A stretch of DNA of 64,000 bases from Naegleria gruberi (taxonomy: Eukaryota), in NCBI GenBank assembly GCA_000004985.1, contig GG738890.1; one strand, given 5' to 3'. This document shows positions 58,377 through 63,653 of the stretch, one piece after another (the first letter of the stretch is position 1; every line of letters starts with the position of its first letter). A program made the translations under genes and the position numbers. Under the pieces are notes generated by a model. It was not told the origin of the DNA. It saw nothing but the letters and a program-made list of their open reading frames with translations, and ran no database searches.

Positions 58377-61300
58377 ATGGAGGAGAAGAAGGTGATTAAC
58401 AGTATTACCATTTCATCTTCGGACGCCAGCAATGAAGAGTTTCTAGATTATAAAAACCCTCATGAATCCAATTCGGTAGGAGGACATAACGAGAGTGGTA
58501 ACAATGTAAGAAATACTAATAATACTGTGGGAGCACCATCACACATTGGTGGTGGCTCATCAACAATATCATCGGGTCAACAATCATCAGCTCTCACTGG
58601 TAATAACAAATTTATAACTCTGAGAGAAACCCTATTTCAATTCCTAATATCACTTAATGTTAAAACGCCTAAGGTTAATTCCAAAAGAGGTGCCTTTATT
58701 AATTTTCTCTTATACTCATACCTATTGTATATAACTGTGATTATTTCTTCGAGCCCTAGCTTGATATCACAAGATCCAACAACCTCTACATCATCATCAT
58801 TGAATAGTTCTAATAGTATGTTATGGGGAGGTATTCCTGGATGGATTTGGAGAGTACTCTTCTATCCAATCAATCTAGGGGCTGAACATTATCCGTATGA
58901 GGCAATTGTTTCACTCTTGGCTATATTTGTGGCCATTGAGGGAATGGCCTTATTTTTCTTCTACTTGTTCAAAGTTTTTGTAGATAGGGGAAGTAAGGTC
59001 GTGCCTAGAATGAGGATAGCGCTTAGGATATTCTCTATGGTCGTATTATTCCTTTCTCCCTTCATTGTTTGGATACACTCCATTCCTATGGCTATCTATT
59101 CTTCAAATGGGTCATTGACTCACTTTCCAACCATTCAGTACAATTCTCCAATGAACATTGCAGCTATAGTCATTGGATGTGTTGGCATAGTACTAACAAT
59201 TATTATAACACTGATAGGATCCTATATTGTTGTGGAAACAATACCTCCTTCGTTGAGATATATCTTTTTTGCTGCTGAAAGAGTTTACCCTCTCACTGCC
59301 TTATTCATTTTCAACCAATTATCAGTTTTACTCACTGTAATATGTGATGTGAATTATGTAATTGTTGGCTCCTCTTTAAAAATAGTTCTTTCACTGCTAT
59401 TGATTGGAATTTTTGCTAATCGATTGCCATTCTTTAAGAGATTTGAAAATTCAATATTGATTGGAATTTTATGTGCCCGAGTTGTTGGATCGATTGGTCC
59501 AATAGTTAGTCATTCAATATTAGTGAATAGTAGTGGTCTTTCTTCTCAATTGGTGGAGACAATTGGCGGATCTGTTACTGGAGGAACATTGGTGTTAATG
59601 ATTGGATTTTTCATTCTCTCAACAACAATATTTCAAATTTACCTTATTTTGATGACAAGAGGTGTTAAAAAATCCCTCAGAGAATTATTCAACAACAGAA
59701 AAACCTCCAAAACAGAGAGTATCAAATATTACATGAACTGTGAGGAAACACATACTTTGAAAAAGTTGCTCACCTTTATGAAATTTTCCTTAAATAGTTT
59801 TGAAGAGAAGGAAGATTCAGATTTTGAGATTTGTAACAATTTAGTTCAGAGCTGTATGAATACCAAAGTTGCAATTGATGTTGAATATTTAATCTTATCA
59901 GGAATGTACTTTGGTTTCTTTGGCGATGCTGATGCTAATTTGACGAATTCTGTGATTTCGATTGGAATAATGACGAGAGGATTGAAGCACCAACCTAACA
60001 TTATTCAAAAATTCCACATTATTCTAAGAACGAGGGAGATTGAATCCATAGCCTCTCAATCCAATGCTTTCAACCTTGAACTCAAGCAACAAATGAGCTC
60101 TCTGGATAAGAAACAAGTTCTCATCATGTATTTTCACAGAGAATTCTTCAAAGAACTCTTGAGTGATAAGCCACACATTGTCAAATTGGAAAATATTAAC
60201 AGAACTGTCACTAAAATGGTGAATGACTGTGATAATAGATATAGAAATTTGGCAGCCATGCACCGAAACAACAAGACTCTGTTAAGATCATATGCTGTAT
60301 ATTTGGAAACCTTGCGTTTTGAAAAGGAGGCAGCTCAAGAATTATATGAAGAAGCCAATACTCTCGAGGAGGAAGAAGTCAAGAGAGGAAGAAGACCCAC
60401 TCACAAAACAAGTCGTTTCTTTGTCCCTCAAAAAGGTGGTTCTAGAAATAGAGTCTTTCCAGTAACAACCACTTCAGAAATGAGAAGGGATTTCACACCC
60501 GCTAATGATGACGTTCAAGAGATGGTTATTGTCGATGAAGAGAATTGGGATTCTGTCAGTGCCATGCAAGATGAAGGAACCAAGAAGGAGATTGTCTATC
60601 GAATGGCTCTCAATTCACCAGATGACAATAAGAATTACACAATTTGGTTTGCTCTATTTTGCTTTTTCACAGTCATTGTATTCGTTACTTGTTTGGCAAC
60701 TTCATTATCAATCAATGACGAAACTTCGAAGAGAGTTTCACTTCAGGAGACAGTTTGCAGTTTGAGTTCAATACCTTCATTGATGGCTCAACAAATGAGA
60801 GCCATTCTAGCCAAGTTCAATCACGCCTCACATCCAGAGGATTTGGTTGAATTGGAAATTATCAAGTCAGTTTCTAGAAAACAAATAGAATATCTAATAT
60901 CCAAGGTACAGCTTGTGCAATATGCTTCTACATCTGGGGCTTTTATTGAACAAGTTGTCAAGACCTATACGGATCAGAGTTGGGACTATTACATTCCCAC
61001 AAAACAATTTGATGAATTGGCAGATCCATTGTATGATATTGGTAACTCATCGGTTGGTCAATTTGTAGATATGATTATTGATTCAGGAAGTGATATTATT
61101 GATGGAATGGAGGATTTAACCACTTTCAATAAGACTCTATCCAATTATCCGTTTCTTCTCATCTTCCTTAATAGAAAGCACTTGACAGAGGCATTTGATT
61201 CATTTTGTGTAACTTTTATTGAAGGATCAAAATATAGCTCCCAACAAGGAAGTATAATTTTTCACAGCGTTTGTTGTGGAGTTTTGGGACTTTACCTTGT

Positions 61301-63653
61301 ATTCACCTCTATTTATCTTTTCGTGCTGAGAACAGAACTATTACAATTACACAGAATATTCAATAAGGTTTTCACAAAGGTTCCCAAAGATGAGACTGGT
61401 AAAATTTTCCATTCATTTGATAAGAAGGTCGAAGATGAAATTAGAAAAGAGAATAGAACTATTTTCACACCGCAGGCAATGTTCTTGTCTTTCACAATTG
61501 CCACTATTGTGGTAGTGGTTATTGTAACCATTTTGGTAATTGTAGAATTCAATATCAATGCTAGATCTGCAGAGTCGACCATGTTAGCAACCAATTCTAT
61601 GAATACCGTAGTATTAAGCTCCATGGTTGTTAATTTTAACTTGTTAGAAATGATATTAGAAAGTCATTTGTATCCAATACCACAAGAAACCATCAAGAAG
61701 ATTAATATTGAACAGCTGGCTATAGCGAACTTTGCTTGGAGAGCTATTTCTGTAGGAAGTGAATCGAATAATTACAAGAGTTCCATCTATGGAGTTTATG
61801 AAGAAATTGATCAGTTATTGAAAGGCAGTTGTGTGAATGCTACAGGCTCACCTGAAAGGCTGACAAACACTACTGAAATGATGGCAGTTCTAGATTGTAT
61901 GGGAATGGAAGATTTAGTAGATATGTTTGTTTCTCATGCTACTGAATTCAATCAAGATTTTGCTGTCTCACTTAACGAACCTGAAACTGAAGTGGAAAAT
62001 TACTTTTCACATATTTATTATGTTTCGATTTATCTTTCACAAAAATTATTTGAATTTATCAAGACATTTGTTTCACATTCAAAGAATGCATCAATTGTCA
62101 TTACATATGCATCTTGCTTTGGTGGATTGGGTATTGTTTTGGTTCTATTCTACTTTTCCTATACATTCCTTCAAAACTTTTGGGATGAAAAGCATCATGC
62201 TAGAACAATGCTCAACTATGTTAAGTGGAATATTTTGGAACAGAATAGAGAGCTTAATCAATTTGTTATTTCACACGAAATTGGTGGATTTACCTATTCC
62301 ACTGTTGAAAAGATTGCAAATAAGGTAAAGAAAGGGATGAGTAGTGAAGAGGAGGAGGCAGAAGATCCAATGTCAATGACCATCTCAATTCTAAATGCAA
62401 CCACAGATGGTAGTGTTATTTGTAATCATGAAGGTGCTATTCAAGTGTTCAACAATGCAGCTGAAGATATGTTTGGATGTAGAAAGAGTCAAGTTGTTGG
62501 TCTCGATATTTCAAATCTGTTCTCTATGGAGGATCAACCAAGAGTTTTGAAATTTATTACCTTAATGAATTCATCCAGCAATGTAGGAGGAGAGGTATTG
62601 GAAATAGATTGTCAGAGAAGAAACCAGACTATTTTCCCTGCCAAAGTCACTCTATGTGTCAGCTACTATAATAAGAAACCAATTTTTTCATGTTTCATTA
62701 GAGATGTTACAATGGAAAAGAAGCAAAATGCACTGATTCAAGAAGAAAAGAAGAAGAGTGAAGAACTCTTGTTGAATATTCTTCCAAAACCAGTTGCTCA
62801 TAGATTGATGGAAGGTGAAAGAAATATTTCAGAAAAGTTTGGAGATGTTTCTGTTTTCTTTTCAGATATGGTTGGATTTACCAAATTTTCATCCCAGATG
62901 GAAGCTTCTGATTTGGTCACCATGTTAAATCAAATTGTGGAGGGATTTGATTCTCTCACTGATAGGCATGGATTGGATAAGATTAAAACCATTGGTGATG
63001 CCTTCTTTGCTGTAGGAGGTTTATATGCTTCAAAATCGAGCGACCATCCTGAGAGAGCTTTGAAATTCTCAATTGATGTTTTTGGATTTTTGAATCAATT
63101 TAATAAGAATGAAAAGAGGAATATTAATATTCGTATTGGACTTCATACCGGACCGTGTGGTAAGTAGTAACATGTTTATTCATGAATACTGAAAATTAAA
63201 GTTGGTGGAGTGATTGGTAAACTCAAATTTGCCTACGATTTGTGGGGTGATACAATCAATACTGCCTCAAGAATGGAATCTACAGGTGTCCCGGGAAGGA
63301 TTCACATGAGCAGATCAACCTATGAGCGTGTTCATGACTTGGGATTCAAGTTTGAGGAAAGAGACGAAATTATGGTAAAAGGAAAAGGCAAGATGAAAAC
63401 CTATTTACTTCACAGCAAGCACCACTTGCCAGCTTTGGAAGAATATGACATTACAGTTAGTACAGACGCTATTCCAGTGGAGAATAATGGATTGGAAGCA
63501 GCAAGATTAAATATTCCAAAAGTGAAAAGCATGTCTGGTCTCTCCCAAATATCAAACTTGGACGACTATATGGTTTCAAATAGGTCTGAAACAAGAAGTT
63601 ATGGGTCCATGAGCCAAAGAGGAAGCGCTGAAGATTTTAGTAAATATCAATAA
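58377..63653 (+). CDS. large polytopic membrane protein with PAS domain and C-terminal class III adenylate/guanylate cyclase catalytic domain; 2 exons
   Basis: About 10 N-terminal TM helices and additional TM pairs in the middle. A PAS-like segment sits near residues 1340-1440. The cyclase-linker motif is LLNILPKPVAHRLMEGE. Cyclase homology domain motifs are FGDVSVFFSDMVGFT, KIKTIGDAFFAVGG and [36 protein letters not shown]. A 42-nt intron at 63160-63201 (gtaagtagtaac...attaaag) interrupts the cyclase domain. Exons are 58377-63159 and 63202-63653. Confidence 0.8.

Follow-up and report, generated by a model that had tools for sequence, protein, structure and literature searches.

How the membrane anchors of class III adenylate cyclases might serve as receptors, if they do so at all, is a question on which a long gene of Naegleria gruberi bears. 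The gene occupies positions 58377-63653 (+) of a 64,000-nucleotide stretch of contig GG738890.1 (assembly GCA_000004985.1), which we refer to as the window. A first-pass annotation, made from the letters of the window alone, had described it as a membrane nucleotidyl cyclase with a PAS-type sensor domain, and here we follow up that description computationally. We find one gene with two exons that, when spliced, encodes 1744 aa, and whose predicted product wires a complete ATP-type catalytic domain via a PAS domain to a module of 12 transmembrane (TM) helices with two large ectodomains. With a probability of about 0.72, we regard the protein as a receptor-type homodimeric class IIIa adenylate cyclase that carries a TmcB-family membrane/sensor module.

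A two-exon gene with a missed 42-nt intron

The open reading frame (ORF) at 58377..63167 runs for 1596 codons without a stop, and three in-frame TAA codons (TAA TAA TAA) directly precede its ATG at 58377. Its product is 100% identical to a deposited 1596-aa protein, 'predicted protein [Naegleria gruberi]' (P0001). The surrounding DNA is AT-rich (~30-40% G+C), and the frame lies in DNA of ~34% G+C. A chance ORF is excluded because a 4.8-kb stop-free frame at this composition is matched both by the identical deposited protein and by an ortholog of 44% identity.

Around position 63160 the sequence reads G/GTAAGTAGTAAC...AAATTAAAG/TTGGTGGA, where the slashes mark the two splice junctions. Left unspliced, the frame GGT AAG TAG yields ...GPCGK followed by a stop, which is identical to the C-terminus of P0001. 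Removal of 63160-63201 gives a 5235-nt coding sequence of 1744 codons in which the only stop is the terminal one, and joins ...HTGPC to the product of exon 2 exactly at GPC/VGG, the very point at which a 42-nt intron had been proposed from the letters alone. The GTAAGT..AG splice restores the frame, the Pfam domain and ortholog continuity: the spliced product matches positions 4-182 of the 183 in the Pfam cyclase profile and is colinear, residue by residue, with the Naegleria lovaniensis ortholog P0002. Judged from the sequence, the intron call corrects the deposited annotation, in which the missed intron had cut the model short. P0001 lacks three active-site residues (D1607, N1614 and R1618) and, since all three lie in exon 2, would wrongly score as a pseudo-cyclase.

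The ortholog of N. lovaniensis (PYSW02000051.1, 3001-8258) has no intron at GPC/VGG. Its intron lies 14 codons downstream, at YDL/WGD (GTAAGT...TAG), and intron sequence amounts to 188 nt in the gene overall. The intron position therefore appears to have shifted, or to have been gained or lost independently, between the two species. In addition, the N. gruberi paralog models P0016, P0018, P0020, P0025 and P0123 all stop abruptly at positions 119-126 of the catalytic-domain profile and end in short nonsense tails. This suggests that missed short introns cluster in a ~17-codon catalytic stretch across the family and have been systematically overlooked. Because such introns cut the models inside the catalytic domain, database surveys will mis-score these genes as pseudo-cyclases.

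A complete catalytic domain with an ATP-type specificity pair

The spliced protein has a single Pfam Guanylate_cyc (PF00211) match (residues 1486-1665; E 1.5e-60; 204.4 bits versus a cutoff of 21.9), and tblastn of the window returned one match, with no second cyclase domain or further cyclase paralog. We located the catalytic residues by alignment to the mammalian cyclases AC8 and AC9 and in a 24-sequence family alignment (the window protein plus 23 family catalytic domains). These alignments assign metal binding to D1497 and D1541, adenine specification to K1537 and D1607, phosphate binding to R1586 and transition-state stabilisation to N1614 and R1618. All seven residues are present in the spliced protein. 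The resulting pattern D-D-K-R-D-N-R is identical in 20 of the 23 family domains; Lys occupies the first specificity position in 23/24 sequences and Asp the second in 24/24. The first-pass annotation had pointed out that the metal-binding Asp residues or the transition-state Asn/Arg might be missing, as in a pseudo-cyclase; D1497, D1541, N1614 and R1618 are all there.

Lys/Asp (or Thr) at the base-contacting positions specifies ATP, and Glu/Cys specifies GTP (PMC7384201). The predicted substrate is ATP because K1537/D1607 match the Lys/Asp rule. On its residues, the protein is thus most likely an adenylate cyclase, neither a guanylate cyclase nor a pseudo-cyclase. The alignment of substrate-specificity residues that had been suggested as a check has thereby been made and gives the ATP pattern, so that of the label 'nucleotidyl cyclase' the second word stands, but the substrate need not be left open.

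The best solved relatives of the catalytic domain are AC8, AC9 and AC5 (4e-70 to 1e-64), to whose C1 and C2 domains it aligns. Next comes the homodimeric mycobacterial membrane adenylate cyclase Cya/Rv1625c (7yz9, 4p2f; about 1e-51 to 2e-51), and the PDB matches of receptor guanylate cyclases and rhodopsin-guanylate cyclase are weaker (about 1e-43 to 1e-40). As one chain of the Naegleria protein holds every catalytic residue, the established structure of class III cyclases leads us to expect a homodimer, with the subunits head to tail and two equivalent sites. Both the single class III domain and its homodimeric action had been proposed earlier; the one Pfam match bears out the former and the full residue set argues for the latter.

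A PAS domain joined to the catalytic domain by a link of fixed length

Residues 1337-1445 match the Pfam families PAS_9 (2.1e-14) and PAS (4.1e-10). The domain is placed in the cytoplasm because no TM helix separates it from the catalytic domain, in keeping with the intracellular PAS sensor of the first-pass annotation. The closest solved PAS domain by sequence is the heme domain of Bradyrhizobium FixL (BjFixL; 7.5e-11), and an NCBIfam FixL match was also obtained (3.5e-12, far below cutoff). The proximal His200 of BjFixL aligns to V1390, a position held by I, L, V or M in 39/39 family PAS domains. The equivalents of FixL His214 and Arg206 are missing as well, and at the position of FixL R220 an Arg or Lys is conserved in the family. 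We ruled out a FixL-type heme PAS on the replacement of the proximal His by V1390. A flavin-binding LOV domain was ruled out by sequence inspection only: residues ~1374-1383 read VGLDISNLFS instead of GxNCRFLQ. From these residues we infer that the PAS domain would be a cofactor-less or small-ligand sensor, or a dimerising transducer, rather than a heme or flavin sensor.

The Lys/Glu-rich residues 1446-1463 join the PAS domain directly to a cyclase transducer element, LLLNILPKPVAHRLMEG, a type of helix also described as a 'handle' (PMC7384201). This element aligns with the helix ahead of the C1 and C2 catalytic domains in AC8 and AC9, and residues 1449-1477 weakly match the C-terminal end of HNOBA (E 0.023, below cutoff). 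Within LLLNILPKPVAHRLMEG, residues 1468-1477 are the ILPKPVAHRL that had been picked out as a canonical cyclase linker, an assignment with which the AC8/AC9 alignment agrees. The link from PAS domain through coiled coil and transducer element to catalytic domain is conserved and of fixed length across the family.

Twelve predicted TM helices in an 8 + 2 + 2 layout

Hydropathy, loop charge and AlphaFold2 models agree on 12 TM helices arranged as 8 + 2 + 2. There are 12 Kyte-Doolittle peaks of at least 1.87, eight of them within residues 102-427 and four isolated (about 752-781, 958-986, 1038-1061 and 1238-1266). Successive loops contain 4, 1, 4, 0, 2, 0, 2 and 0 Lys/Arg residues, and a very basic segment follows TM8. 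Since Lys/Arg-rich and Lys/Arg-poor loops alternate, the positive-inside rule predicts a cytoplasmic N-terminus, and NxS/T sites lie in predicted outside loops, including both large ones. We built two AlphaFold2 models, each from a family alignment of about 35 sequences. That of residues 100-682 has eight long helices with the short conserved helix 152-166, followed by a ten-helix cytoplasmic solenoid. That of residues 736-1300 contains two modules; in each, a 60-80-residue helix rises from the membrane to enter a helical bundle, and the chain then returns.

These results do not support the >14 TM helices counted earlier, and the best estimate is 12. The long N-terminal region is indeed polytopic, but it is not uniform: it consists of an 8-TM bundle, a TPR-like solenoid and two TM-ectodomain-TM modules. 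The cytoplasmic TPR_TmcB domain and the two ~175-aa extracellular bundles had escaped the first reading. The TPR_TmcB match scores 52.6 bits against a cutoff of 27, covers positions 23-124 of a 125-position profile, and coincides with helical repeats in the model. Around helix 152-166, the motif LWGxIxGWIxRVLFYPINxGAEHY is strongly conserved and is predicted to lie on the outer side of the membrane; it could represent a signature of the family or a re-entrant part of the 8-TM bundle. The first ectodomain is predicted to be an extracellular helical bundle with NxS/T sites and conserved Cys residues. Modules 1 and 2 are weakly colinear (BLASTP E 0.002; hhalign probability 58%, E 1e-4), and their sequences make an ancient internal duplication possible.

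A colinear family in Heterolobosea

We searched 1.84 billion representative sequences exhaustively with HMMER, using a profile of residues 100-1270 plus the ortholog. At E <= 1e-3 the membrane module matched 145 proteins, of which 54 passed E <= 1e-30; in many, the match extended from about profile position 50 to about 1175. By local phmmer comparison, TPR, PAS and catalytic domains are ordered and spaced alike in at least 30 representatives. The members with names belong to N. gruberi, N. fowleri, N. lovaniensis and Willaertia magna; all are uncharacterised and annotated as 'hypothetical' or 'predicted'. The N. lovaniensis ortholog P0002 shares 44% identity and the same Pfam set, and the N. 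fowleri ortholog is P0007. That transcripts might reveal the N-terminal TM region as a separate gene had been raised earlier; this region lies in the same ORF as the cyclase and is colinear with it in the at least 30 representatives, those with names coming from four heterolobosean species. The original picture of a single gene for a polytopic PAS cyclase is upheld by one ORF plus intron, one Pfam set and a colinear family.

In two members, P0031 of N. lovaniensis (1502 aa) and P0033 of N. gruberi (1563 aa), TPR and PAS domains accompany a full membrane module, and no cyclase domain was detected; these proteins may be natural cyclase-less, TmcB-like forms or further mis-annotations. Distant relatives of the module occur in Cafeteria (as a 'PAS domain-containing protein') and in the chytrids Dinochytrium and Powellomyces. 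A word-indexed search with the N-terminal 1224 aa returned the query only, hydrophobic and low-complexity words having probably swamped the candidates, and a second such search with a 26-sequence alignment of the cytoplasmic domains gave no match, again with word swamping the probable reason.

In the literature we found two passing mentions of the TmcB family and no paper on the TM-TPR-PAS-cyclase architecture. One mention places the action of the family in the cAMP pathway of sexual development in Dictyostelium (Muramoto et al. 2005, as cited in PMC8516963), and the other is an entry for a 'Tiny macrocysts protein B-related' protein in a list from Chlamydomonas cilia (PMC11244166).

Proposed mechanism and alternative readings

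In the receptor-type adenylate cyclase that we propose, each chain is predicted to run from a cytoplasmic N-terminus through the 8-TM bundle and the TPR-like solenoid into two successive modules of TM helix, extracellular helical bundle and TM helix. A juxtamembrane helix extending from TM12 then leads to the cytoplasmic PAS domain, the short coiled coil with the transducer element, and the catalytic domain. Two subunits would pair head to tail through their catalytic domains and so form a symmetric pair of active sites. A signal would be sensed by the extracellular bundles, the 8-TM bundle and/or the PAS domain, and would be transmitted, as a helical rotation or piston movement, along TM12 with the cytoplasmic helix that continues it and then across the PAS domain to the coiled coil and transducer element. 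This motion would reset the geometry of the catalytic-dimer interface and so switch cAMP synthesis.

Several points weigh against such a receptor. Fold comparison of the model found no matching fold for the 8-TM bundle among solved structures, and this bundle could be a transporter or channel. The fold of the ectodomains matches a generic helical bundle, with 4-10% identity, and scores as high or higher are reached by bundles designed de novo; as modelled, the ectodomains are helical-bundle domains with a sensor-like layout and nothing beyond that. The PAS domain has no identifiable cofactor site at the FixL-type and LOV positions examined. Finally, the orthologs of N. lovaniensis and N. fowleri lack the C-terminal 79-residue tail; as this tail is non-conserved, the predicted 3' end might involve another intron.

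Were the membrane module a transporter or channel, the cyclase would report or couple to a transport cycle instead of serving a ligand receptor, in parallel with the K+-channel-fused adenylate cyclases of Paramecium and Plasmodium or the P4-ATPase-guanylate cyclases of alveolates. This view draws support from polar or helix-breaking positions that are conserved within TM segments of the 8-TM bundle (e.g. ETIPP, PFxRRxENS, GSIGP and ETIGG), and from the lack of a receptor-like structural match. Fusions of transporters with class III cyclases do exist in protists, where they have been described (PMC13466520); P0005, for instance, combines P-type ATPase domains with two catalytic domains. However, the module has neither a Pfam or NCBIfam match to a transporter or channel nor a structural match to one above generic helical scores, and two extracellular bundles continuous with TM helices and followed by a PAS domain and a transducer element have the layout of a sensor kinase or chemoreceptor. 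We therefore consider a transporter or channel unlikely. A guanylate or dual-specificity cyclase is very improbable: the name of the Pfam domain (Guanylate_cyc), the weak linker match to HNOBA of soluble guanylate cyclase (E 0.023, below cutoff) and the strong PDB matches to receptor guanylate cyclases and rhodopsin-guanylate cyclase point towards it, but the top PDB scores go to adenylate cyclases and Lys1537/Asp1607, with Lys and Asp near-invariant in the family as given above, is the ATP pattern and not Glu/Cys. We rejected a guanylate cyclase on these specificity residues.

We attach almost no weight to a catalytically dead pseudo-cyclase, or to two adjacent genes fused by chance in one frame. 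The public model P0001, which ends in ...GPCGK without D1607, N1614 and R1618, gives the former a superficial basis, and family members without a catalytic domain exist in Naegleria (P0031 and P0033). Against it stands the canonical 42-nt GTAAGT..AG intron, which restores the frame, the full Pfam domain and ortholog continuity; against two genes stand 1596 stop-free codons and the TM-TPR-PAS-cyclase order in at least 30 representatives, those with names from four species. Both readings were rejected on the spliced ORF, the full Pfam domain and the colinear family.

The fusion physically joins the TmcB family, for which a regulatory role in Dictyostelium cAMP signalling has been described, to cAMP synthesis. 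The architecture is expanded in Naegleria, including the pathogen N. fowleri, and in Willaertia, and is probably responsible for some of the very large set of cyclases in Naegleria, reported to number at least 81 (PMC9928731). More tentatively, and at well under even odds, TmcB-type modules might constitute an unrecognised class of eukaryotic surface receptor with cAMP synthesis as the native output. If so, the heterolobosean fusion to a PAS domain, a transducer element and an adenylate cyclase would act as a 'Rosetta stone': it would explain the effect of cyclase-less TmcB on Dictyostelium cAMP signalling, via partnering with a separate cyclase, and would provide a tractable model for a polytopic membrane anchor controlling a class III cyclase.

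Features of the locus and neighbouring genes

Table 1. Features of the cyclase gene and its predicted product, with the extents of the AlphaFold2 models (ECD, extracellular domain; pLDDT, predicted local distance difference test; pTM, predicted template-modelling score).
Feature	Position in window	Strand	Residues	Remarks
Exon 1	58377..63159	+		codons 1-1594 and first base of codon 1595
Intron	63160..63201	+		42 nt, phase 1, GTAAGT...AAAG (GT..AG)
Exon 2	63202..63653	+		remainder of codon 1595 to codon 1744, and stop; carries D1607, N1614, R1618
8-TM helical bundle, TM1-TM8	58680..59657	+	102-427	predicted from hydropathy, loop charge, AlphaFold2
Short conserved extracellular or re-entrant helix	58830-58874	+	152-166	predicted, between TM1 and TM2
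Cytoplasmic all-helical TPR-like solenoid	59709..60389	+	445-671	predicted, AlphaFold2
Pfam TPR_TmcB, PF25474	60078-60383	+	568-669	E 5.7e-14
Sensor module 1	60630..61334	+	752-986	predicted; TM9 752-781, ECD1 782-957, TM10 958-986
Sensor module 2	61470..62174	+	1038-1266	predicted; TM11 1038-1061, ECD2 helical bundle 1062-1237, TM12 1238-1266
Cytoplasmic PAS domain	62385..62711	+	1337-1445	
Coiled coil (S-helix-like) and cyclase transducer element	62712..62831	+		HNOBA tail match, AC8/AC9 alignment
Cyclase transducer element LLLNILPKPVAHRLMEG	62766-62816	+	1464-1480	
Class III cyclase homology domain	62832..63413	+	1486-1665	split by intron
C-terminal tail	63414..63650	+	1666-1744	79 residues, Ser-rich, non-conserved
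AlphaFold2 model mcde4c23722ff			100-682	pLDDT 87.5, pTM 0.84
AlphaFold2 model m933052062db7			736-1300	pLDDT 89.1, pTM 0.81

Immediately upstream of the cyclase gene lies a gene for a Ras-family small GTPase (56778-57416 (+)), split after ...WDTAGQ by a ~126-nt GTTTGT..AG intron; from reading its sequence, we take this GTPase to be Rab7-like. An ORF at 53803-54861 (-) encodes an NmrA-like NAD(P)-binding protein (Pfam NmrA, 6e-25). At 50500-53571 (+), ~27 nt lie between two neighbouring ORFs, the second with HATPase_c and Response_reg domains; the two are probably parts of one gene, interrupted by a very short intron, for a membrane-bound hybrid histidine kinase.

Comparison with known systems

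A close parallel among solved enzymes is Cya/Rv1625c of Mycobacterium tuberculosis (7yz9, 7yzi, 4p2f; match about 2e-51). It likewise has one catalytic domain per chain with all catalytic residues and the Lys/Asp pair, and is likewise membrane-anchored with a helical transducer element directly before the catalytic domain. The metazoan transmembrane adenylate cyclases AC5, AC8 and AC9 and Dictyostelium ACA share the transducer-element helix and, by coincidence, a total of 12 TM helices. They differ in being built as 2x6-TM pseudo-heterodimers with non-equivalent C1 and C2 domains in each chain and regulation by G proteins. The Naegleria protein does not have two catalytic domains that each follow a 6-TM bundle: it has one complete domain and an 8 + 2 + 2 layout, which accords with the contrast to the 12-TM, two-domain metazoan and dictyostelid enzymes drawn in the first-pass annotation.

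Soluble guanylate cyclase (H-NOX - PAS - coiled coil - catalytic domain) likewise has a PAS domain just upstream of the coiled coil/transducer helix. However, it is soluble, heterodimeric and GTP-specific and senses nitric oxide through a separate heme domain, whereas the Naegleria protein is predicted to be a membrane-bound, ATP-type homodimer. The cyanobacterial CyaB1, a GAF-GAF-PAS-cyclase, has a similar PAS-coiled coil-catalytic arrangement. The oxygen sensor FixL provides the nearest solved PAS domain, and the Arg/Lys at the R220 position is kept; the heme-binding arrangement is not, with His200 replaced by Val1390 and His214 and Arg206 lost. As for the ectodomains, the bacterial four-helix-bundle periplasmic sensors (Tar/Tsr, PcaY, the NIT domain of NasR and histidine kinase sensors) resemble them at the level of the fold only, at 4-10% identity. 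Unlike these, the Naegleria protein has two tandem modules per chain and an additional 8-TM bundle.

With the TmcB family, the protein shares the TPR_TmcB domain above the Pfam cutoff, and the module relatives in Cafeteria also have a PAS domain. For Dictyostelium TmcB, which we compared by description only, the sources found report no cyclase domain; in Heterolobosea, the module is fused to a predicted adenylate cyclase. Both the gene and its automatically assigned domains can already be found in public databases and, judged by sequence, the catalytic half is an ordinary class IIIa adenylate cyclase. The novelty lies in the anchor, a structurally unmatched TmcB-family module with two ectodomains that is fused to a cyclase in Heterolobosea.

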